Shown: positions 9,555 through 60,667, counted from the stretch's first letter. The stretch: 60,667 nt of DNA from Trueperaceae bacterium (GCA_036381675.1 DASVCK010000079.1:1-60667), one strand, 5' to 3'. Translations and numbers: made by a program. Notes: generated from the sequence alone by a model not told the origin.

Positions 9555-9736
9555 CTAAGTTCCTCCCAACCTGGTCCTTGGCTTGGTAGTCCTCACCCGC
9601 CGCAAGGGAGCGGGTGGGTGCCGATTTGCCGTATCCGACGCGACAATGATAGGCGCGACCAAAGTGGGTGTCAACGAAGGGAACCTCACGACCGCGGCCA
9701 CGGGAGCACGGCTATCCTCGCCTCCGGAGGAACTAC

Positions 9737-10804
9737 ATGCCCAAGCCACGTATCGCGTTCTCCCTCTGCGCCCTGGCCATCGCCGCGGTGCTCGCGGCCT
9801 GTAGCCAGCCGCAGTCGCCGGCCCTGACGGCCGACGACGTGCAGAAGGACCTCGACTCGCTGCAGTCCGGTGCCATGACCGTACTCGGCGACGCCAGCCT
9901 GGCCGATCTGTCGACCCTGCTCGACGGGATCGACGCCTCACCCTTCCTCGCCACCGGACCGGAGCTGCCGAGGGGCGTCTACCAGTACGACCCCGTGGCG
10001 GTCGCATGGGACCTCGTCGAGCCGTCCGACGATCTGGAGCTCCACTGGGAGGTCCAGGGCACCGGTGAGGCCGCGCTGCTCGTCGTCGACTGGGACGCCA
10101 GCGCGGCCACGGTCGTGCGCACCCTCCCTGGCGACGACGACGTCGAGCTGCCGCAGGGCGCCAGCGTCGTGCTGTCCCTCGACTCCGTGGTGGTTGCCTC
10201 GTTCGACCAGACGGCCGACTGGCCGCTCAACGCCTGCGGCTACCTGACCGAGCCGGGCTCCTTCCACGTCAGCGGTTCCGTGGCGTCGAGCGGCACCACG
10301 CTCACGGTCGACGAGACCGGGATCGCGATCTCGGGCACCGGGGCGGACGTGGACGTCGAGTCGCAGGGCGGGCTCGAGGTCGCCTCGGCCTCCGGCAGCG
10401 CCTGGCTGGACTGGACGCTTGGCCTCGCCCTCACCGCCACTCGCGACGACGTGACCTGCGCGATCGTCGACGCCGAGGTGAAGTCCGGCCACGTCGCGGT
10501 GGACCTGGGCGTGCAGACGCCCACCGAGGACGCCAGCGTCGGCTTCGCGACGAACTTCGCCATCAACCTGCCCCAGGCGGCGGGCGACCCCACGACTCTG
10601 AGCCTCTCGGCGGGCCGGCTGACCCTCGACGGCACGCTGGCCGTCACCTGGGCCGGTGTGCTCGACGACTCCAATGCCAACGGCGTGCCGGGCGAGAACC
10701 TGACACTGACGTTCGCCGACGGCACCATGACCCTCGAGGAGTTCCTGACCGAGCACTACGCGCCGCTCATGGTGGCGGCCCGGGTGGCCAAAGCCCTGCG
10801 CTAG
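9737..10804 (+). CDS. Lipoprotein of unknown function
   Basis: MPKPRIAFSLCALAIAAVLAAC|SQ has a lipobox (LAAC). GGAGG lies 6 nt upstream of ATG 9737. The mature protein is acidic and rich in Thr, Ser, Val, Gly and Ala, and I recognise no domain. The track ORF (9668) over-extends. Confidence 0.7.
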   Translation: MPKPRIAFSLCALAIAAVLAACSQPQSPALTADDVQKDLDSLQSGAMTVLGDASLADLSTLLDGIDASPFLATGPELPRGVYQYDPVAVAWDLVEPSDDLELHWEVQGTGEAALLVVDWDASAATVVRTLPGDDDVELPQGASVVLSLDSVVVASFDQTADWPLNACGYLTEPGSFHVSGSVASSGTTLTVDETGIAISGTGADVDVESQGGLEVASASGSAWLDWTLGLALTATRDDVTCAIVDAEVKSGHVAVDLGVQTPTEDASVGFATNFAINLPQAAGDPTTLSLSAGRLTLDGTLAVTWAGVLDDSNANGVPGENLTLTFADGTMTLEEFLTEHYAPLMVAARVAKALR

Positions 10805-28691: not shown

Positions 28692-30383
28692 TCACTTCTC
28701 GCCCGGGAAGTTCGGACCTGGGATGTACTTGACTCCTGGGCCCCTGGTTCCTACCTTCACGACGAGCCCCCGAGCTTGCAGGTCCCGCAACATGTCTCGT
28801 GCCGTGAACACGTCGAGATCAAAAAGCCTTCTAAGCGTTTGATTGGATATGTGTCCGTACTCGAGGACGTGTTGGACTACCTTGTCGTCGGAGCCTTCGG
28901 CCATGCGGCGGTGATATGCGACTGCGAGTCCCAAGCCCGTCAGCGCCGAGGCGGTCAGTCCATATCGTGGGAAGGCCCTGCTTGCCGATCTCTTCGTTGG
29001 CTCGACAAGGCCAGCCTGCTGCATCCTCTCCAGTGTTACTTGGGCCTCGGCAGGGGAACGTTGAAACAGAGGGGCCATGGATGTGGCGTCAACGGCCCGT
29101 ACTGAACAGAGCGCGTCAAGAACCATTAGGACTTCTATGTCCGCCTCTAGCCCATCAGGAAGTCCACTATTCACAAATCGCGCAAACGAGTCATTTCCGA
29201 TTCCGCCATGAATCCGTGACTCGAACATTTCTCCCGAGTCTGCGAAGGACGGGGGTTTCTTGCCACCCCTAAGCAGATAGCGATACGCGCGGTCAATTCC
29301 CTGACCAGCGCGCTCAGCTACCTGAAGTGCAGTAACGGTCTCCAGTAGGAGATGGTTCCTGGGAGTAGACGGGTGGCTCAGTAGATTGCCGGTCGTCACT
29401 CCGAACACCAGCCCTCCAGGGCTGGAGATCCTGAGTTGCTCTTGTGATTGCTCCACCTCGATAGTGCCCGAGGTCTCATAATCCCGGTGCACGAAGGCGT
29501 TGACGACCAGTTCTCTGACCGCCTCAGTAGGATAGTCTTGTAGCTGAACCTGAACGCCACCGGCAAGGTTTAGCGGACGTATCGATCGGCGGGCATCTAT
29601 CACGTCAATCAAGTGCTCGACCCCTGCCAAGAGTGGGCGGACGGCTCGGAATCGCGCAGTAGCCTCTACTCCAGGGTGTGGCCGATACTGATAGGCATAA
29701 CCATGTGAAGGAATCAGGTTCTGCAGGTCCTCCTCTTCGCCTACCAGGAGCAGGCCGGCGCGGGTGAGTTCTCCATTATCGCGAAGGAGTCGAAGGTCCC
29801 GAAGAATGACCGTCGAGTCCCGATCGGCGAGTTCATCTCGCCCCGCGGCTCGCAGTAGACGCTTGATTCTCACAATTTCAGACTCAGCGAATCGGGCAGT
29901 TCCCGCCGGCTCAGCAGACCAATCATGGAGGCCGCGAGCTGCTAGGGCTTGGCGCTGCTGTTCGGGCGGAAACGGCTGGCAAGACGTACCGATGCGGCGC
30001 GTCACCGTTCCACGCGCGTTGGCGTACAGTGTTGCGCCCACTGGAACGGTAATTTCGAGCACACGTCTACCAATCACGATGTGCTCTTGAACAGGTACGG
30101 AAAGACCTGGACGGGTTCGCTCAAACACGCCGGAGACCACACTTCTCACAGTCAGATTGGCGGATACGCCAGAGATTGCCGCGGGTCCGGCGATCTTATC
30201 CGAGACTCCCACCACAATGGTGCCGCCGTGTGCGTTGGCAAAGCAGACAACTGCATCCGCGATGAGGTCAAGCGTGCTTTTCAAGTTGTCGCGTTCTGCC
30301 TTGAAGTCCAAGACCTCGGACTCCACGTCGTCCGCGCGCGCGCCAGCGAGTATTGGTCCCATCAGCCCATCGATGCGTTTCAC
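28692..30383 (-). CDS. AlbA_2 (Schlafen-like DNA-binding) + HATPase_c_4-type + C-terminal winged-helix protein (COG2865-like 'putative transcriptional regulator / ATP-binding protein')
   Basis: N-terminus ESEVLDFKAERDNL...LIADAVVCFANAHGGTIVVGVSD (AlbA_2 pattern); middle AVRELVVNAFVHRDYETSGTIEVEQSQEQLRISSPGGL (HATPase_c_4-like); C-terminus HISNQTLRRLFDLDVFTARDMLRDLQARGLV (wHTH). The gene sits in a clearly lower-GC segment. The start could be GTG 30383 or ATG 30362. Confidence 0.75.
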   Translation of the reverse strand: MKRIDGLMGPILAGARADDVESEVLDFKAERDNLKSTLDLIADAVVCFANAHGGTIVVGVSDKIAGPAAISGVSANLTVRSVVSGVFERTRPGLSVPVQEHIVIGRRVLEITVPVGATLYANARGTVTRRIGTSCQPFPPEQQRQALAARGLHDWSAEPAGTARFAESEIVRIKRLLRAAGRDELADRDSTVILRDLRLLRDNGELTRAGLLLVGEEEDLQNLIPSHGYAYQYRPHPGVEATARFRAVRPLLAGVEHLIDVIDARRSIRPLNLAGGVQVQLQDYPTEAVRELVVNAFVHRDYETSGTIEVEQSQEQLRISSPGGLVFGVTTGNLLSHPSTPRNHLLLETVTALQVAERAGQGIDRAYRYLLRGGKKPPSFADSGEMFESRIHGGIGNDSFARFVNSGLPDGLEADIEVLMVLDALCSVRAVDATSMAPLFQRSPAEAQVTLERMQQAGLVEPTKRSASRAFPRYGLTASALTGLGLAVAYHRRMAEGSDDKVVQHVLEYGHISNQTLRRLFDLDVFTARDMLRDLQARGLVVKVGTRGPGVKYIPGPNFPGEK

Positions 30384-31930: not shown

Positions 31931-32010
31931 GCACCCTGCCCGCACGTCGCCCCTGGCGCCACCCGATCGCGGCGCGCGGCTAGGCTCCTGAGCGGCGCCC
32001 ACTCTCGGCG

Positions 32011-32057
32011 CCACGGACGAGGGAGCCGTACCCGGTCAAGCCAAGACGGCCAGGAGG
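32011..32057 (+). promoter_or_regulatory. Guanidine-III riboswitch (ykkC-III motif) including the SD of the downstream SMR gene
   Basis: CCACGGACGAGGGAGCCGUACCCGGUCAAGCCAAGACGGCCAGGAGG. It matches, block for block, the Thermobifida fusca guanidine-III aptamer as I recall it (CCGGACGAGG-UGC-GCCGUACCCGGUCA-GGA-CAAGACGGCGC). GCCGU/ACGGC can form P2. AGGAGG follows immediately, and the GTG start of an SMR/Gdx gene is 7 nt later. Confidence 0.85.
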
Positions 32058-32063
32058 TCTGTT

Positions 32064-32384
32064 GTGGCGTGGTTCATCTTGGTCATCGCCGGCCTGCTCG
32101 AGACCGGTTGGGCGATAGGCCTCAAGTACACAGAGGGGTTCACGAAGCTGGTGCCGTCGGTCCTGACGATCGCCGCCATGGTCGTCTCGATGGCCCTGCT
32201 GGGTCTGGCGCTGCGCGACCTGCCGGTCGGGACGGGCTACGCGGTCTGGGTCGGCATAGGTGCGTTGGGGACGGCGATACTGGGCATCCTGCTGTTCGGC
32301 GAGTCGGCCAACCCCGGTCGGCTGGCGTTCCTCGGTCTCCTCATCGTCTCCCTGGTCGGGCTCAAGCTCACGACCCCGGAGTGA
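32064..32384 (+). CDS. gdx: SMR family transporter, SugE/Gdx-type guanidinium exporter
   Basis: [26 protein letters not shown]... (SugE subtype with the conserved membrane Glu); 106 aa, 4 TM. Sits behind a guanidine riboswitch. Confidence 0.9.
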
Positions 32385-32502
32385 CCAACGGGCCCGGACG
32401 GTAGCTGCCGCCCACTCGCGCCGCGTCGCGCCGCCGCATACAATCTCGCCTAGACCCAGTCCTTGCGCAGGTCTGTACTCCCCCGCGGGTCCCGGAGCGC
32501 CG

Positions 32503-35500
32503 ATGAGCGAGACGATTGCGGTGATCACCGCGCTTGGCGTCGTCGTGGCGATACTCGCCAACCTCACGAACATCGCCCGGTTCCTCGCCGACAGGCGGGA
32601 GAAGCGCGCGGTAGGCGTGAGCGTGGCGACGGCGACGGCCGGGGCGATGTCGGCTCCCGCGGTCGTGACGGCGCCGCCTCCCATCCTCACGCCGGATAGG
32701 CGTATCCGCGTCTTCGTCTCGTCGACGCTGGGAGAGCTGGCAGACGAGCGCCGGGCCGCCCGCGCGGCGATCGAGGGCCTGCGCCTGACGCCCGTGATGT
32801 TCGAGGAGGGTGCGAGGTCGCACCCGCCGGTGCAGGTCTACCGCTCCTACCTCAGCCAGAGCGACGTGTTCGTCGGCATCTACGGCGAGTCCTACGGACA
32901 GCTCTCCCCGGGGTCGGTCGTCTCGGGCCTCGAGGAGGAGTACGGCCTCTCGCAGGGTATGCCTACGCTCCTCTACGTGCTCGACCCCGCGCCGGGACGG
33001 GAGCCCCGGCTCTCGGAGCTCCTGGGCCGTATCAAGGCGGAGGGGCGGTCCTCGTACAGGAAGTACTCGACGGCGACCGAGCTGGCCGAGATCCTCGCCG
33101 ATGACCTCGCCGTCCTGGTAACGGAACGCTTCCACGGCGGCCCCTCCGTGACGGCGCAGCCTGAGAGCGCGGCGCAGCCGGCCCCGGCCCCCACCCCGCC
33201 CGTCCCGGAGCGGGGCGGAAGGCGGCGTCGCGGCTCGGGCGCCGCCTGGCCGGCTCTGGCCGACTACGACCAGCGCACCGGCAAGCCCACGCCGCCGCGG
33301 GTCCCGCTGCCGCCGACCTCCTTCGTGGGTCGCGACGAGCTGCTCAAGAGCCTGGCGGACGTGATCACGGACGAACGCGTTCGGTTGGTGACCGTGCACG
33401 GCCCCGGCGGCATCGGCAAGAGCCGCCTGGCGATCGAGGTGGCCGGGCTCGTCGACGCGAGCTTCCCTGACGGCGTCGTGTTCGTCTCGCTGGACGCCGT
33501 TCGCGATGCGGACCTCCTCGCCGGCGAGATCCTGGCGGCGCTCGAGGTGCGCGAGAACGAGTCCGGCGGGCCGGAGGAGCGTCTGGAGAGCGCCCTGGCC
33601 GGCCGGAAGATGCTGCTGATCCTCGACAACTTCGAGGGCCTGCTGGCGGGCGTGCCGCTCGTCTCGCGGCTGCTGGCCCGCGCGCCCCAACTCAAGCTGC
33701 TCGTGACGTCGCGTCAGATGCTGCGGGCGCGTAGCGAGATCGCCTTCTCGGTGCCGCCGATGACCCTGCCGACGGGACGGCAACGGCTCAGCGCCGAGGA
33801 AGCGCTGCGCTACGACGCGGTGCGTCTGTTCGTCGACCGCGCCGACGACGTCAGCCCCGGCTTCGTGCTCGACGAGGAGAACGTGGACACGGTCGTGGAG
33901 ATCTGCCGCCGCCTCGACGGGCTCCCGTTGCCTATCGAGCTGGCGGCCGCCCGTGTGCGTACCCTGCCCCCGGCGGCGCTGCTGACGCGCATGACGAAGC
34001 GGCTGCCCGTGCTCACCGGTGGCCCCAGAGACGCGCCGGCTCGTCAGCAGACCCTCAGGGCCACGATCACGTGGAGCTACGACCAACTGGAGGAGGACCA
34101 GCAGCGCCTGTTCGCCCGCCTGGCGGTGTTCGATGGCGTCACGTACCTCGACGCGGTCGAGAGCGTGCTCGAGGAGCCGAACGTGCTCGACGGCATCGGG
34201 GCCCTGGTAGACGCGAGCCTGCTCATGCGGCTCGCGCCCGACGAGGAGGCCTACCACATGCTCGAGACGCTCAGGGAGTTCGCCGCCGAGCGACTCGAGG
34301 AGTTGCCAGGGGCAGAGGAGCTGCGCCTCAAGCACGCGCGCTACTTCGTGGTGTTCGGCGGCATCGCCGGCGACGGCCTCAGGGGCGCGGAGCAGCAGGA
34401 GTGGCTCAGGCGCCTACGCGGCTCCGACGGGAACCTGCGCGCCGCGCTCGCCACCCTGCTGGACAGGGGCATGGCGGAGGAGGCGCTCAAACTGTCCTCG
34501 GACCTGCGCCCCTACTGGCATCGCGTCGGCGCGCTCAGCGAGGGAAGGCGCTGGCTCGGCAGGGCCCTGGAGGCGGGGCCGGACGCGCCGGCGATCCTCC
34601 GGGGCGCCGCCATGCTGGCTGACGGCGTGCTGGCGTGGCGTCAGGGCGACCTGAAGGGCGCGCGGCCGCAGCTGGCCGCAGCGCTGGAGATCGCCAAGGA
34701 GGTCTCCGACGACACCTGCGCGATAGTCGCGCTGCGCAGCCTCGGGGCCATCGCCCAGAACCTGGCCGAGTACGAGGAGGCCGACCGGCTCATGCAGGAG
34801 AGCCTGGACCTCTCGGTCAGGGCCGGCGACCGCGAGGCGCAGTCGAACACCTACCTGAGCCTCGGGAACATCGCCCTCGATCAGGGCCTGCACGACCTGG
34901 CCGAGGAGCGCTACGGCCGCAGCCGCGACCTGGCCGATGAGACCGGCGACACCTTGGGCTACGCCTACGCGCTGGACAACCTGAGCGTCAGCGCCTGGCA
35001 CCGCGGCGACCTCCAGGAGGCGGCGCGCCTGGCCGATGAGGTCATGGAGATCTACGAGGAGCTCGACCTGCAGGGCGGCAAGGCCAACGTGTGGCACCGG
35101 CGCTGCCTCGTGGCGATCGAACGCGGCAACCTGGAGGTCGCGGAGGCAGAGGGCCTCAAGGCGCTCGCCGTGCGCGAGGCGCAGGGCGAGGACCGCGGCA
35201 CCTCGTTCGTCCTCTTCGATCTGGCCCGTGTGGCGCTCTCGAGGAGGGACCTCGAGACCGCGCGTGAGCGCCTCGCCAGGGGCCTGAAGCTGGCCACGCG
35301 CCAGGGGGCCCCGGTGATCGAAGTGCTGTACGTGGAGGGCGCCGCCTGGTACCTGAGCCTGCTGGGCAAGCACGAGGAGGCCTACGGCTTGCTGGCCGGT
35401 GCGGAGGCCTGGCGGCACCGGATGGGGGTGCCCATAGCGCCCGTGAACGTGGAGCGACAAAGCCGGCTGGGTCGGATGCTGGAGGGCCGTCTCGACGCTT

Positions 35501-35595
35501 ACACGCGCACGGCGCTGGAAGCGCGAGCGCGCGAGGCCGAGCCGCGGGCGCTGCTCGAGCGCGCCGGAGGGGCGCTGGCCAAGCCGGCCAACTGA
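32503..35595 (+). CDS. Membrane-anchored DUF4062 - STAND (NB-ARC/COG3903-like) ATPase - TPR protein, 1030 aa
   Basis: TM helix IAVITALGVVVAILANL. DUF4062 pattern RIRVFVSSTLGELADERRAARAAIEGLRLTPVMFE...SDVFVGIYGESYG. Pro-rich linker. Walker A GPGGIGKSRLA, Walker B KMLLILDNFE, LLVTSRQ, GLPLPIELAA, QQTLRATITWSYDQLEEDQQRLFARLAVFDG. About 400 aa of TPR-like repeats. The track ORF start at 32260 overlaps gdx and is rejected; ATG 32503 is chosen. Confidence 0.85.
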   Translation: MSETIAVITALGVVVAILANLTNIARFLADRREKRAVGVSVATATAGAMSAPAVVTAPPPILTPDRRIRVFVSSTLGELADERRAARAAIEGLRLTPVMFEEGARSHPPVQVYRSYLSQSDVFVGIYGESYGQLSPGSVVSGLEEEYGLSQGMPTLLYVLDPAPGREPRLSELLGRIKAEGRSSYRKYSTATELAEILADDLAVLVTERFHGGPSVTAQPESAAQPAPAPTPPVPERGGRRRRGSGAAWPALADYDQRTGKPTPPRVPLPPTSFVGRDELLKSLADVITDERVRLVTVHGPGGIGKSRLAIEVAGLVDASFPDGVVFVSLDAVRDADLLAGEILAALEVRENESGGPEERLESALAGRKMLLILDNFEGLLAGVPLVSRLLARAPQLKLLVTSRQMLRARSEIAFSVPPMTLPTGRQRLSAEEALRYDAVRLFVDRADDVSPGFVLDEENVDTVVEICRRLDGLPLPIELAAARVRTLPPAALLTRMTKRLPVLTGGPRDAPARQQTLRATITWSYDQLEEDQQRLFARLAVFDGVTYLDAVESVLEEPNVLDGIGALVDASLLMRLAPDEEAYHMLETLREFAAERLEELPGAEELRLKHARYFVVFGGIAGDGLRGAEQQEWLRRLRGSDGNLRAALATLLDRGMAEEALKLSSDLRPYWHRVGALSEGRRWLGRALEAGPDAPAILRGAAMLADGVLAWRQGDLKGARPQLAAALEIAKEVSDDTCAIVALRSLGAIAQNLAEYEEADRLMQESLDLSVRAGDREAQSNTYLSLGNIALDQGLHDLAEERYGRSRDLADETGDTLGYAYALDNLSVSAWHRGDLQEAARLADEVMEIYEELDLQGGKANVWHRRCLVAIERGNLEVAEAEGLKALAVREAQGEDRGTSFVLFDLARVALSRRDLETARERLARGLKLATRQGAPVIEVLYVEGAAWYLSLLGKHEEAYGLLAGAEAWRHRMGVPIAPVNVERQSRLGRMLEGRLDAYTRTALEARAREAEPRALLERAGGALAKPAN

Positions 35596-55963: not shown

Positions 55964-57733
55964 GTGGAGCAGCCCGTCCAGACCCCCGAGACGACCTCGT
56001 ACTACGACCTGGGCGCTTACAGCAGGCCGGTGCACACGTCCTCGGCGGAGGCGCAGGTCTGGTTCGACCGGGGCCTCAACTGGTGCTACGGCTACAACCA
56101 CGACGAGGCGATCCGCTGCTTCCAGCGCGCGGCGGGGCTCGACCCGGACTGCGCGATGGCCTACTGGGGCGTCGCCTACGCGGCCGGTTGCAACTACAAC
56201 AAGCCATGGGAGGCGTTCCTCGAGGAGGAGCGCAGTGAAGCGCTCGCGCAGGCGCATGACGCAGCCCTGAGCGCGAGCGACGCCATAGCACGTGCGAAAG
56301 CGGACGCCTGGCCCGCTGAGGCAGCTCTGATCGCTGCGGTCGCGCGCCGCTATCCCGCTCCGGCTGCCGGCGCAGGCGCCCCGTTCCAAGCCTGGAACGA
56401 CGACTATGCGGCTGCCATGCGCGCCGTGTACGCGTCGTATCCCGCGGACCACGACATCGCGGCTCTGTTCGCAGAGGCGCTCATCAACCGCACGCCGTGG
56501 CAGCTGTGGGATCTGGCTACGGGCGAGCCGAAGGACGGCGCGGACACGCCGGAGGCTCAGGGCGTCCTGGAAAGGGCGATCGCTGAGCGAGAGGCGAGCG
56601 GCATGGCGCCGCACCCTGGCCTGCTTCACGTCCACATCCACACCATGGAGATGTCGCCTCGGCCGGAGGTCGCCCTGCGCGCCGCCGACGCACTGCGCGA
56701 CCTCGTGCCCGACTCCGGCCACCTGCGGCACATGGCCTCCCACATCGACGTCCTGAACGGGCTGTACCACGACTCGCTCATAGCGAACGAGCGCGCCATC
56801 CGCGCCGACGACGAGTACTTCGCGCGCAACGGCGACGGCTTCTATACGCTCTACCGCTGCCACAACATCCACTTCAAGATCTACTCGGCGATGTTCCTCG
56901 GCCAGCTCGGCCCCGCGCTCGCAGGCGCCAGGCAGCTCGAGGCGGCCGTGCCCGAGTCCCTCCTGAGGGTCGAGGTGCCGCCCATGGCCGACTGGCTGGA
57001 AGGCTTCCTCAGCATGGGCGTCCACGCGCTGATCCGCTTCGGGCGCTGGGACGACGTGCTCGCACTGCCGCTGCCGGGAGACGCGGACCTGTACTGCGTC
57101 ACCACCGCCATGACCCGCTACGCGCGTGGCGTCGCGCTGGCGGCGCTGGGCGACGTCAAGGGCGCCGAGCAGGAGAGGGTGGCCTTTCGGGCAGCCACGG
57201 ACCGGGTACCCGAGAGCCGCACGGTGTTCAACAACACCTGCCGCGACATCCTGACGGTGGCGGCGGCGATGCTCGACGGTGAGCTCGAGTACCGCAAGGG
57301 CGACCACGAGACTGCGTTCGCCAGGCTCCGCGAGGCCGTGCGCCTGTCGGACAGCCTGCCTTACGACGAGCCCTGGGCCTGGATGCAACCGGTAAGGCAC
57401 GCGCTGGGTGCGCTCCTCCTGGAGCAGGGACGAGTGGAGGAGGCTCTGGTGGAGTACCGCGACGACCTCGGCCTCTCCGGGCGGGTGCCTCGCGCCCTGC
57501 AGCACCCGGACAACGTCTGGGCCCTGCACGGCCTGGTGGAGTGCCTCGAGCGGCTGGGGCGCCGGGACGAGGCCGCGATACACAGGCAGCGGCTGCGCCT
57601 CGCCGAGGCGCGGGCGGACGTCGTCATCGACTCTTCCTGCTACTGCCGGCTGGAGCCGCCTCCGCACGTCGGGCTCGGGCACGGGCCTGGGCAGTCCGAG
57701 CACGCGGGACCGGGGCACGAGCGTTGCCACTGA
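55964..57733 (+). CDS. TPR-like helical repeat protein of unknown function
   Basis: 589-aa ORF (GTG start): FDRGLNWCYGYNHDEAIRCFQRAAGLDPDCAMAYWGVAYAAGCNYNKPW..., with TPR-like repeats throughout. I cannot assign a function. Confidence 0.7.
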   Translation: MEQPVQTPETTSYYDLGAYSRPVHTSSAEAQVWFDRGLNWCYGYNHDEAIRCFQRAAGLDPDCAMAYWGVAYAAGCNYNKPWEAFLEEERSEALAQAHDAALSASDAIARAKADAWPAEAALIAAVARRYPAPAAGAGAPFQAWNDDYAAAMRAVYASYPADHDIAALFAEALINRTPWQLWDLATGEPKDGADTPEAQGVLERAIAEREASGMAPHPGLLHVHIHTMEMSPRPEVALRAADALRDLVPDSGHLRHMASHIDVLNGLYHDSLIANERAIRADDEYFARNGDGFYTLYRCHNIHFKIYSAMFLGQLGPALAGARQLEAAVPESLLRVEVPPMADWLEGFLSMGVHALIRFGRWDDVLALPLPGDADLYCVTTAMTRYARGVALAALGDVKGAEQERVAFRAATDRVPESRTVFNNTCRDILTVAAAMLDGELEYRKGDHETAFARLREAVRLSDSLPYDEPWAWMQPVRHALGALLLEQGRVEEALVEYRDDLGLSGRVPRALQHPDNVWALHGLVECLERLGRRDEAAIHRQRLRLAEARADVVIDSSCYCRLEPPPHVGLGHGPGQSEHAGPGHERCH

Positions 57734-60297: not shown

Positions 60298-60657
60298 TCA
60301 GTTGAGGGGACGCATGTAGCGGCGCAGCCTCTGCGCCATCACGGACATCACGTGCAAGCCGAAGGTGGGGGAACGCCTGATCAGGTGCTTGAACCAGTCC
60401 TGGTCTATGGGCTCGACCTTGACCTCGGTGCGGGCCACGGCGTCGGCGCTCCGTGGCGCCTCGTCGACTATGGCCATCTCCCCGAACACGTTGCCGGGCC
60501 TCAGCTCCTCGATGCTCTTGCCGTCCAGAACGATGTCGACGGTCCCCTCGATGAGCACGTACATCTCGTGCGCCGCGTCGCCGGCACTGAAGATGACCTC
60601 ACCCGCCGAGTAGTTGCGGGCGTTCGGCGAGTCCTTGAAGATCTCGAGCACGTCCAT
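60298..60657 (-). CDS. Stand-alone cyclic-nucleotide-binding (cNMP) domain protein
   Basis: GEVIFSAGDAAHEMYVLIEGTVDI...GNVFGEMAIVDEAPRSADAVA is the canonical cNMP-binding cassette (FGE...RSA). The start (ATG 60657 or GTG 60666) is at the window edge, so a longer N-terminus cannot be excluded. Confidence 0.75.
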   Translation of the reverse strand: MDVLEIFKDSPNARNYSAGEVIFSAGDAAHEMYVLIEGTVDIVLDGKSIEELRPGNVFGEMAIVDEAPRSADAVARTEVKVEPIDQDWFKHLIRRSPTFGLHVMSVMAQRLRRYMRPLN

Positions 60658-60667
60658 GCTCACCACC

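Follow-up and report, generated by a model that had tools for sequence, protein, structure and literature searches.

A predicted membrane-anchored NIR (DUF4062)–NB-ARC–TPR protein of a Deinococcota lineage as a candidate NLR-like switch

The window analysed here is a stretch of DNA of 60,667 nucleotides from a Trueperaceae bacterium (GCA_036381675.1 DASVCK010000079.1:1-60667). At 32503..35595 it carries a complete coding sequence of 1030 aa plus stop, whose product consists of a TM helix, a NIR (DUF4062) domain, an NB-ARC STAND module and a TPR region; the gene and all features described below lie on the + strand. In the window translation, the frame opens at 32260 and closes with the stop at 35595. 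Support falls on the ATG at 32503 as the start: a Shine-Dalgarno-like GGAG (32493..32496) occurs 6 nt before it, and essentially the same N-terminus (M-x-x-x-IAVITALGVVV...) begins approximately 50 of the homologs retrieved. A start at the GTG at 32260, which would run into the SugE gene, was rejected. Homologs share 44–92% identity over their full length. An earlier note, made from the sequence alone, had described a single 1030-aa ORF with an N-terminal TM helix, a DUF4062 pattern, a Pro-rich linker, a STAND module and approximately 400 aa of TPR-like repeats, lacking a SARP or LuxR domain. This description of the protein's anatomy was confirmed, and no SARP or LuxR domain was present among the Pfam matches.

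The first 35 residues (32503..32607) comprise the N-terminal signal-anchor helix, with a hydrophobic core (IAVITALGVVVAILANL; Kyte-Doolittle mean of 2.26 across 19 residues) followed by a basic RREKR. With one helix of ~20 residues and a positive flank on the cytoplasmic side, the protein is predicted to be a signal-anchor membrane protein, and the position of RREKR after the helix would, by the positive-inside rule, place the bulk of it in the cytoplasm. AlphaFold2 predicts a single long helix here (aa 2-38/41), which is undocked in the full-length model (pLDDT 52–69). The helix has a clade-specific motif (xxxxIAVxTAxGVVVAILANLTNIARFxxERRExR), which 49 sequences share and in which G12 and N20 hardly vary. 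It was found in just 19 clusters among 1.84e9 representatives, all 19 belonging to the family of the window protein. The helix is conserved to the same degree as the folded domains, and its conserved positions, small or polar, cluster on a single side of it (p = 0.013). TM helices are well known to associate through Asn and GxxxA-type motifs.

Two disordered linkers flank the domain that follows. Linker 1 (32608..32688; aa 36–62, about 30–64 in the model; pLDDT 30–50) shares 11–51% identity with orthologs beyond the closest one (77%). Linker 2 (33139..33318; aa 213–272, about 211–264 in the model; pLDDT 30–42) is the Pro-rich segment of the earlier note and contains a conserved AAWPALADYDQR motif (33241-33276; aa 247–258). 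The WPAL motif lies ~50 aa ahead of Walker A, whether or not an ortholog has a NIR domain.

The NIR/DUF4062 TIR-like domain itself occupies 32689..33138 (aa 63–212), from beta1 at aa 69–74 to alphaE at aa 191–211. The PF13271 (DUF4062) model matches aa 69–147 with 69.1 bits (cut-off 24.7; E = 3.7e-19), and a profile of the family matches the solved structures of KpSwz (10wc_A, E = 6.7e-8) and TEP1 (11gz_A, E = 8e-4). An AlphaFold2 model of the N-terminal domain (pLDDT 88.7) has a five-stranded beta/alpha structure over aa 69–211 with the topology b1-aA-b2-aB-b3-aC-b4-aD-b5-aE, a flavodoxin/TIR-like parallel fold. When this model was searched using Foldseek against a library without the KpSwz structure, the TIRs of RPS4/RRS1, TIR-STING, SARM1, TcpB and RUN1 were returned among flavodoxins, with plant and bacterial TIR domains in the top matches. 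The earlier note had proposed that a TIR-like fold and conserved catalytic residues be sought in this domain; the modelled fold and the Foldseek matches agree with the former, and a glutamate motif described below bears out the latter. Its claim that no function of DUF4062 had been defined by experiment is, however, outdated. Three 2026 preprints show that DUF4062/NIR is a TIR-like NADase and that it serves as the effector of Swarozyc, Evangelion, Vulcan, Vesta and PsAvs2, the last a NIR-STAND-TPR protein, in each case dependent on a catalytic Glu.

The predicted catalytic-glutamate motif of the window protein, S-G-L-E144-E-E146-Y, is encoded at 32923..32943 (aa 141–147). The 102 rows of the family alignment show no variation at S141, E144 and E146, nor at F71 and E101, and the S-x-x-E-x-E-[YF] motif aligns with S-F-T-E95-K-E97-F of KpSwz, in which E97 is the catalytic residue and is mutated in the deposited chain 10wc_A. 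Eva01 has the catalytic pair E87-Y88. The catalytic residue is most likely E146, with E144 as the alternative, a choice that depends on two sequence alignments differing slightly. F71 corresponds to the N-terminal aromatic motif of Eva01, and the "Q/W/E" motif of the Evangelion/Swarozyc cores seems, from an alignment read by eye, to be unconserved in this family. Among orthologs beyond the closest relatives, NIR is the best-conserved domain. The conserved catalytic motif and the KpSwz profile match suggest that the window protein would possess NADase activity.

The full-length AlphaFold2 model (mean pLDDT 87.9, pTM 0.75) places an NBD-HD-WH arrangement over aa 278–600, followed by ~21 TPR-type helices over aa 604–1026. 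The STAND nucleotide-binding domain (33319..33822; aa 273–440) is matched by Pfam NB-ARC and AAA_16, with NB-ARC (PF00931) covering aa 287–481 at 27.7 bits (cut-off 23.5). It contains Walker A (G300-PGGIGK306-S; 33400-33423), Walker B (LLILD375-NFE378; 33610-33636) and a TSR sensor motif (aa 402–404), and 109 sequences share residues G300, G303, G305, K306, D375, E378 and R404 without exception. The helical domain, GLPL motif (GLPLPIELAA) and winged helix follow at 33823..34422 (aa 441–640). The motifs quoted in the earlier note (GPGGIGKSRLA, MLLILDNFE, LLVTSRQ, GLPLPIELAA and QQTLRATITWSYDQLEEDQQRLFARLAVFDG) are all present in the translation, and motifs, winged helix and Pfam model together identify an NB-ARC/AP-ATPase-type STAND NTPase. 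Foldseek with the full model ranked the PH0952 STAND first (6mfv_A, E = 3.4e-14), then RPP1, Apaf-1, CED-4, ZAR1 and MalT. A PF25872 HTH_77 match, listed for the window protein and marked weak on orthologs, is taken to be the STAND winged helix and no sign of DNA binding.

The TPR super-helix is assigned to 34423..35592 (aa 641–1030), with TPR-type helices from about aa 604, and is presumed to be the sensor. It was matched by TPR_12 (E = 1.4e-22) and by TPR_MalT at 32.5 bits, under its cut-off of 45; LGN/Pins TPR matches were also obtained for the C-terminal region. The DUF4062, NB-ARC and TPR assignments lie well outside what chance would give.

Read as an NLR-like sensor with an enzymatic effector, the protein falls within a published kind of system and does not represent a new one. 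PsAvs2-NIR and further NLR-like proteins with a NIR domain (Le Mouellic et al., bioRxiv 10.64898/2026.09.04.749371) have the same NIR-STAND-TPR-type order in one chain and a conserved catalytic Glu, and this likeness would lead one to expect the same logic of sensor, oligomerisation and NADase. The window protein differs in that its STAND is NB-ARC/AfsR-like, without an Avs-type PADLOC v2 model, in having an extra conserved TM helix and long disordered linkers, and in being encoded by a chromosomal gene that passes vertically, in a syntenic position, through Deinococcota. Swarozyc (KpSwz) and Evangelion (Eva01) (bioRxiv 10.64898/2026.05.01.722283; 10.64898/2026.06.25.731849) share the homologous NADase core, the VFVSS aromatic motif and the S-x-x-E-x-E-[YF] region but are single-gene systems of ~300 aa with an "AUX" helical region and no STAND ATPase, TPR or TM helix, found in defence islands or on plasmids. 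The plant TIR-NLR resistosomes RPP1 and Roq1, likewise comprising an N-terminal TIR-like NADase, NB-ARC and a C-terminal repeat sensor, offer a model for oligomerisation-induced NADase activity, and the full-length model of the window protein finds RPP1 chains near the top of its Foldseek matches; these resistosomes differ in their LRR sensor, canonical TIR, lack of a membrane anchor and eukaryotic origin. The NB-ARC and TPR chassis is that of AfsR/SARP-NB-ARC-TPR and PH0952-type STAND-TPR proteins, and BTAD regulators and kinases share 32–36% identity with aa 272–1001 of the window protein. Judged from sequence, this chassis is closest to AfsR/BTAD-type signalling proteins and not to Avs families, but its output is an NADase-type domain and a TM helix in place of the SARP DNA-binding domain. 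The ZAR1-type CC-NLR resistosome and the TM-helix effectors of bacterial defence systems such as CBASS and Pycsar provide an analogy only, for an N-terminal helix that might be clustered at or in the membrane by STAND oligomerisation. The helix of the window protein would, by prediction, sit in the membrane constitutively, and it has no sequence homology to them.

On balance, we lean slightly towards a membrane-tethered NLR-like switch whose output is the NIR (DUF4062) TIR-like NADase. The N-out/C-in signal-anchor helix would tether the protein to the cytoplasmic membrane on its inner side, and at rest it would be held monomeric and autoinhibited by its TPR super-helix together with an ADP-bound NB-ARC module. 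A ligand on the TPR domain would bring about nucleotide exchange and NB-ARC oligomerisation, which would gather the flexibly linked NIR domains, and the anchor helices along with them, with growth arrest or cell death as the end result. This proposal builds on the domain anatomy, on the conservation of the catalytic residues, Walker A/B and anchor helix, on homology to solved NADase-active DUF4062 domains and on purifying selection across the folded domains; the NADase activity of this protein, its activation by oligomerisation and the nature of the trigger are inferred. Less certain than the chemistry is the biological role: like other NIR proteins, this one may act in cell-autonomous immunity by way of abortive infection. 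The earlier note had read the gene as an NLR-like conflict or stress sensor and not a transcription factor. Its sensor-plus-effector part stands on the architecture, on DUF4062 in the effector position and on the conserved catalytic residues, an NLR-like sensor with an enzymatic effector being supported because of the invariant catalytic motif and the KpSwz profile match; by Pfam there is indeed no DNA-binding output domain. The conflict role found no support in the genomic context. Counted against the NADase-switch reading were the lack of a PADLOC defence model other than a generic TPR one, the absence of any recognised defence system from the window and of defence-type Pfam families from eight inspected loci, synteny with housekeeping genes down to 51% identity, the near-absence from viral contigs, the lack of a plasmid record for the NIR part, NIR-less orthologs, some NADase-negative eukaryotic NIRs and the slightly differing alignments behind the choice of catalytic Glu.

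Against PADLOC v2 (a 2023 database that predates NIR; E<=0.1), no Avs/AVAST or bNACHT model matched the protein; this check, suggested by the earlier note, gave nothing beyond an unspecific "TPR" model (E = 2.2e-11) and an oxidoreductase match that was weak. No recognised defence system was found among the 43 ORFs of the 60-kb window, where defence-model matches were limited to ABC-ATPase and cNMP-domain cross-matches and a weak partial one on an inserted AlbA_2 gene. No defence-type Pfam families occurred within 10 kb at eight family loci judged by eye, the family was essentially absent from IMG/VR viral contigs (two weak matches, STAND only), and no plasmid record covered the NIR part of the protein. 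In Deinococcota MAG orthologs from 92% to 51% identity the site is kept: a Liv-type ABC transporter and, in most cases, an aminotransferase come first, followed by the gene itself and then by a convergent Zn-peptidase. A consistent place beside metabolic operons, with action as a transcriptional co-regulator, had been named in the earlier note as an argument against its reading; only the first half was found, orthologs lying consistently downstream of a transport/metabolic cluster. The gene behaves as a resident, vertically inherited chromosomal gene in a Deinococcota lineage and not as a mobile defence-island gene.

These observations bear on a possible, though less than probable, alternative, that of a non-immune STAND protein whose AfsR-type chassis would respond at the membrane to a cue from within the cell or from its surroundings (nutrient, envelope or redox state, for instance) and would tune physiology by way of regulated NAD+ turnover or an NAD-derived signal, as a domesticated housekeeping regulator and not a phage sensor. 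The persistence of the site and the lack of defence neighbours in the window fit it, as does purifying selection on all folded domains (dN/dS about 0.08–0.3), the TPR sensor included (0.09–0.32). The nearest relatives of the STAND-TPR core have regulatory outputs (BTAD/SARP, protein kinase, adenylate cyclase, XRE-HTH), a partial AfsR match exists, the STAND literature reports defence and non-defence clades interspersed, and the NIR authors speculate on signalling or non-catalytic NIR domains. However, all bacterial NIR proteins characterised experimentally so far are abortive-infection NADases. The upstream genes also vary, ortholog P0021 having no aminotransferase and ortholog P0031 another ABC system, so that no operon link is demonstrated; the convergent Zn-peptidase is the sole constant neighbour. 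Furthermore, the gene evolves at ~2x the rate of its neighbours, and remoter clade members occupy unrelated contexts.

The NIR domain has been lost in orthologs at about five to seven positions of an NJ tree without support values, while helix, WPAL motif, STAND with intact Walker A, and TPR are retained at the same chromosomal site. As some orthologs are NIR-less, NAD+ hydrolysis cannot be the sole output of the clade, and its repeated loss makes DUF4062 an optional output and not the core of the protein. It is conceivable, but in our view unlikely, that the helix is the primary output, bundled by STAND oligomerisation into a membrane-perturbing or channel-like assembly, with NIR an accessory, losable second effector. 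The helix kept in NIR-less orthologs would be explained, as would its domain-like conservation, its single conserved face with G12 and N20, its association-type motifs, its exclusiveness to the clade and its undocked position in the model. Yet with a single helix of 20 residues from each protomer a pore would be built from the barest minimum, the conserved face would equally fit a partner membrane protein or resting-state dimerisation, the tree behind the loss count has no support values, and NIR-less proteins might signal via a partner. A related and similarly improbable proposal is a dual-effector, resistosome-like, domesticated and vertically inherited NLR, in which the helix would be an oligomerisation-driven membrane effector or membrane-embedded signalling interface and NIR a second, dispensable output; its resident role in Deinococcota might be, for example, stress- or damage-triggered dormancy, in place of a mobile anti-phage function.

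It is doubtful that DUF4062 is a non-catalytic scaffold for interaction or oligomerisation, as are many animal TIR and some eukaryotic NIR domains. NADase activity was not detected for the NIR domains of human Nwd1, Nwd2 and NPHP3, and the "Q/W/E" motif is apparently not kept, but the invariance of the catalytic Glu motif, F71 and E101 and the standing of NIR as the best-conserved domain argue against a mere scaffold. An AfsR/MalT-type transcriptional regulator, to which a partial NCBIfam AfsR match on the NB-ARC region (E = 1.5e-22), the sub-threshold TPR_MalT and the weak HTH_77 of orthologs might point, is very improbable, being contradicted by the domain content: no BTAD, Trans_reg_C or GerE/LuxR domain occurs among the Pfam matches, the AfsR match reaches 79.5 bits against a cut-off of 1430 and covers aa 263–597 only, and a membrane anchor is present.

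NIR/DUF4062 has been known as an immune NADase only since 2026, and the bacterial cases characterised so far are all Proteobacteria and Firmicutes genes located in defence islands or on plasmids. Neither the clade-exclusive helix nor repeated DUF4062 loss is mentioned in the passages of this literature consulted. The clade described here is distinguished by an AfsR-type NB-ARC-TPR chassis under NIR, by a sequence-specific membrane helix, and by one chromosomal site kept over family-level divergence despite NADase losses. It provides a test case for whether prokaryotic NIR-NLR-like proteins are all immune or whether some have taken on physiological duties, a shift that has been suggested for TEP1, NWD1 and NPHP3 of eukaryotes, and likewise for the output of STAND proteins with a TM helix alone. 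Above all, it offers a starting point for comparative and biochemical studies.

The STAND gene lies within a single open frame (32260–35595, +), in which ATG 32503 is the supported start, with a GGAG sequence 6 nt upstream and approximately 50 proteins in the homologue search list having essentially the same N-terminal residues as its product. These N-termini and the ribosome-binding site rule out both a GTG start at 32260, from which the longer ORF would also overlap the SugE gene (32064–32384), and an internal start at M49, whose product would lack the N-terminal helix. Every motif quoted in the earlier note was found in the resulting 1030-aa translation. Pfam identified DUF4062 at aa 69–147 (E 3.7e-19, 69 bits against a cut-off of 24.7) and NB-ARC at aa 287–481 (above cut-off), together with AAA_16, three TPR_12 stretches and a TPR_MalT match below threshold. 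Kyte-Doolittle values average 2.26 over the N-terminal segment, IAVITALGVVVAILANL, which is followed by RREKR, so that the bulk of the protein is predicted to be cytoplasmic. An AlphaFold2 full-length model built with a 109-sequence alignment (pLDDT 87.9, pTM 0.75) starts with a long helix, followed by a five-stranded beta/alpha domain (aa 69–211), an NBD-HD-WH module (aa 278–600) and approximately 21 TPR-type helices (aa 604–1026), with disordered linkers at aa 30–64 and 211–264. Scanning for sigma-70 promoters and intrinsic terminators revealed none in the 118-nt upstream gap or past the stop. The first 35 codons (32503–32607) have a dS of 0.04 against 0.45 in the rest of the gene when compared with homologue locus L008, and of 0.16–0.25 against ~0.8 for loci L010 and L011; in this small sample, the low dS hints that the start of the coding sequence is under an extra constraint, acting through RNA or translation initiation.

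For DUF4062 the earlier note knew of no experimentally defined function, a view superseded by three preprints of 2026 that show NADase activity (10.64898/2026.05.01.722283; 10.64898/2026.06.25.731849; 10.64898/2026.09.04.749371). DUF4062 is shown there to be a TIR-like NADase that is the effector of Swarozyc (KpSwz), with catalytic residue E97 and the phage portal as activator, the domain of human TEP1 also being a NADase (Osinski et al.). The domain is given the new name NIR and shown to be the effector of a NIR-STAND-TPR Pseudomonas Avs2 protein (E108) and also of Vulcan and Vesta (Le Mouellic et al., 10.64898/2026.09.04.749371), and a catalytic 'E87-Y88' is described in Evangelion (Ibarra-Chavez et al.).

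Twenty-six DUF4062 domains from the family of the STAND protein were built into a profile. Searched against a PDB sequence file containing 10wc (KpSwz) and 11gz (TEP1), this profile matched KpSwz with an E-value of 6.7e-8 and TEP1 with one of 8e-4. The numbering of the deposited KpSwz chain was checked using D16, R18 and D71 of the paper, which places E97A at chain position 84. The KpSwz motif S-F-T-E95-K-E97-F corresponds to S141-G-L-E144-E-E146-Y of the STAND protein. As two KpSwz alignments lie two residues apart, the catalytic equivalent is either E146 or E144, with E146 being the better fit to the motif and to the 'E-Y' of the Evangelion protein Eva01. Residues E144, E146, F71 and E101 are all invariant in a 102-row family alignment. 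Foldseek analysis of an isolated N-terminal AlphaFold2 model (pLDDT 88.7) retrieved the TIR domains of RPS4/RRS1, TIR-STING, SARM1, TcpB and RUN1 among flavodoxin-fold proteins. KpSwz and TEP1 were not retrieved by Foldseek against the PDB, the library of which ends in April 2026, and the newer PDB sequence file was used for these instead.

In the STAND module, Walker A (G300–S307, with K306), Walker B (D375...E378), the TSR sensor and GLPL are present, with key residues invariant across 109 sequences. Foldseek with the full model returned, in order, the archaeal STAND-TPR protein PH0952 (6mfv, E 3.4e-14), the plant TIR-NLR RPP1, Apaf-1, CED-4, ZAR1 and MalT, and was more informative than phmmer of the STAND region against the PDB, which gave only marginal matches to Apaf-1. 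Its sequence places the chassis with the AfsR type. The NCBIfam AfsR model matches partially (aa 263–597), far under its equivalog cut-off, tblastn against plasmids aligned BTAD/SARP regulators and protein kinases, solely to the part beginning at aa 272, and related proteins in the homologue list possess cyclase or XRE-HTH domains. Membership of a known Avs family was rejected, PADLOC v2 giving no Avs/bNACHT match for the STAND protein, which is an NB-ARC-type NLR-like protein outside the Avs families modelled in PADLOC v2. It belongs neither to these families nor to AfsR/SARP or MalT/LuxR, and resembles in its working the NIR-containing NLR-like proteins, the DUF4062/NIR domain and NB-ARC STAND module both being found. 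The central idea of the earlier note, an NLR-like protein with a DUF4062 effector, was thus right, but is no longer new since the DUF4062-STAND-TPR architecture has already been published.

More than 7000 proteins were matched in the homologue search, mostly via STAND-TPR. The broad family (~850–950 aa) has the NIR domain (TPDQRLRVFVSS...) right at its start without a hydrophobic helix and occurs, where the source names the organism, in Cyanobacteria, Chloroflexi and Actinomycetota. The window protein falls in a monophyletic sub-clade, the TM clade, to which an N-terminal helix and linker have been added, and its relatives at 72–92% identity all come from Deinococcota MAGs (Deinococcaceae, Trueperaceae). 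This anchor helix (consensus xxxxIAVxTAxGVVVAILANLTNIARFxxERRExR) is not a generic anchor. It is kept among proteins just ~45% identical overall, G12 and N20 being near-invariant, and its conservation equals that of the folded domains. The conserved residues A6, T9, G12, V13, A16, N20, I24 and F27 share one helical face (conservation moment of 6.6 against a null mean of 2.9, p=0.013), and a search of 1.84 billion representative proteins with a profile of the helix yielded just 19 clusters, every one from the same family or its fragments. The full-length model leaves the helix undocked from the rest of the protein.

A number of clade members have no DUF4062 (including P0019/20/28, P0031/33/34, P0032, P0043, P0051, P0052, P0056 and P0122), while keeping the helix, STAND and TPR parts, with Walker A intact where checked and, in those of the Deinococcota type, the AAWPAL linker motif. 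One of these proteins, P0031, shares its genomic site with the NIR-containing P0016 (Zn_peptidase_2, cytochrome c and nos cluster). NIR-less variants occupy ~5–7 separate positions in a neighbour-joining tree of the STAND-TPR core, which indicates repeated NIR loss, the count being approximate as the tree carries no support values. A short motif, AAWPALADYDQR (33241–33276, +; aa 247–258), lies ~50 residues before Walker A and is conserved in NIR-containing and NIR-less orthologues within an otherwise disordered and poorly conserved linker. A four-residue helix (aa 253–256) is predicted within it, and the motif could serve as a peptide for autoinhibition or docking.

In every examined Deinococcota locus extending far enough upstream, a LivKHMGF-type ABC transporter is found upstream of the STAND gene down to 51% identity, usually with a class-III aminotransferase in between. 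Flanking proteins are consistently more conserved than the STAND protein itself, at 73–85% against 58% identity in locus L004 and 71–81% against 51% in L006. The kept site and these flanks point to an orthologous, vertically inherited gene evolving approximately twice as fast as its neighbours. Comparison with five orthologues gave dN/dS values of 0.08–0.3 for each of NIR, NBD-WH and TPR; for the domains taken whole, nothing pointed to diversifying selection. The STAND gene is followed in all examined Deinococcota loci by a convergent gene for a membrane Zn_peptidase_2 (PF04298; 35606–36271, −, after a 10-nt gap in the window; also in L001, L003, L004, L006 and L015), the sole neighbour kept in all orthologous loci there, including those of NIR-less variants. 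Such an arrangement could be no more than synteny or could mark a membrane partner; the peptidase was rejected as a functional partner, and the adjacency is treated here as synteny only, because the gene is convergent and is missing beside more distant clade members.

Relative to orthologous loci the window has two insertions. One encodes a 563-aa Schlafen AlbA_2 and HATPase_c_4 protein (28692–30383, −; GC 0.61 against ~0.70), of which aa 249–329 weakly match the pAgo-associated 'Aga_SIR2-PNTD' models of PADLOC (E 1.5e-13). It lies between a LivF-like gene and the aminotransferase gene and, being missing from that site in all related loci, was probably acquired horizontally. The other, between the aminotransferase and STAND genes, comprises a guanidine-III (ykkC-III) riboswitch (31991–32054, +; 42.5 bits against a gathering score of 36) and, directly downstream, a SugE/Gdx-type SMR transporter gene (32064–32384, +). 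SugE occurs at the same site in the 92% relative L008, where the gene alone was searched, and was not found there in L001, L003 or L004, so that the pair looks like a small inserted guanidine-export unit. Elsewhere in the window are a 378-aa ORF (9668–10804, +) with a strong GC3 coding signal (0.93) and no Pfam or PADLOC match, and a 589-aa TPR-repeat protein (55964–57733, +) without other recognisable domain.

The suggestion of the earlier note that the STAND protein may be a conflict system found no backing in its context. PADLOC identified no defence system among 43 GC3-supported window ORFs, the sole signals being cross-matches to ABC ATPases (to which the 'mad3/mad8/AriA' matches belong), the weak partial AlbA_2 match and a probable cNMP-binding cross-match. 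The last concerns a truncated gene at the window end (60298–60663, −), whose resemblance to the PycTIR, PycC and TIR-effector models (E 7e-17 to 2e-12) is confined to their N-terminal parts; the match probably reflects a generic cyclic-nucleotide-binding domain and no Pycsar component, and was not counted as a defence system. No defence-type families were found around the more distant clade and family members P0038, P0052 and P0064, which lie in other contexts. Across 2.9 million viral contigs the family is all but missing, and no plasmid record covers the NIR part in the tblastn search.

The best-supported model, which we consider somewhat probable, takes PsAvs2-NIR, Swarozyc and the plant TIR-NLR resistosomes as analogues and views the protein as an NLR-type switch with a NIR NADase output. 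Its domain layout, its conserved residues, its homology to NADases of proven activity and the purifying selection on it are observed; for the activity, its activation through oligomerisation and the trigger, we infer the following course. Ligand binding by the TPR sensor would relieve autoinhibition, upon which the NB-ARC modules would oligomerise and gather the flexibly linked NIR domains into an active NADase, and the resulting drop in NAD+ would arrest the cell. The anchor would limit this switch to the inner membrane face, with the helices necessarily co-clustered.

To our knowledge, the bacterial NIR proteins characterised so far all set a precedent for immunity. A resident, possibly non-immune signalling role is, however, a tentative alternative that agrees about as well with the genomic context, the AfsR-type chassis, the conservation of the sensor and the fact that NIR can be dispensed with. 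It is rather doubtful, though compatible with the NADase switch, that the helix itself is an output, acting by bundling or membrane perturbation as the functional-looking NIR-less orthologues could suggest. A non-catalytic NIR domain is unlikely; the TIR-like fold, the conserved motif and the matches to KpSwz and TEP1 together predict a catalytically competent one. Least probable is a role as transcription factor, as Pfam found neither a SARP nor a LuxR domain nor any other DNA-binding output, in agreement with the earlier note.

Three features of the TM clade are absent from the consulted passages of the published accounts of NIR proteins, namely a clade-specific and sequence-constrained membrane helix, a strictly syntenic vertical inheritance in Deinococcota and the repeated loss of the NADase domain.
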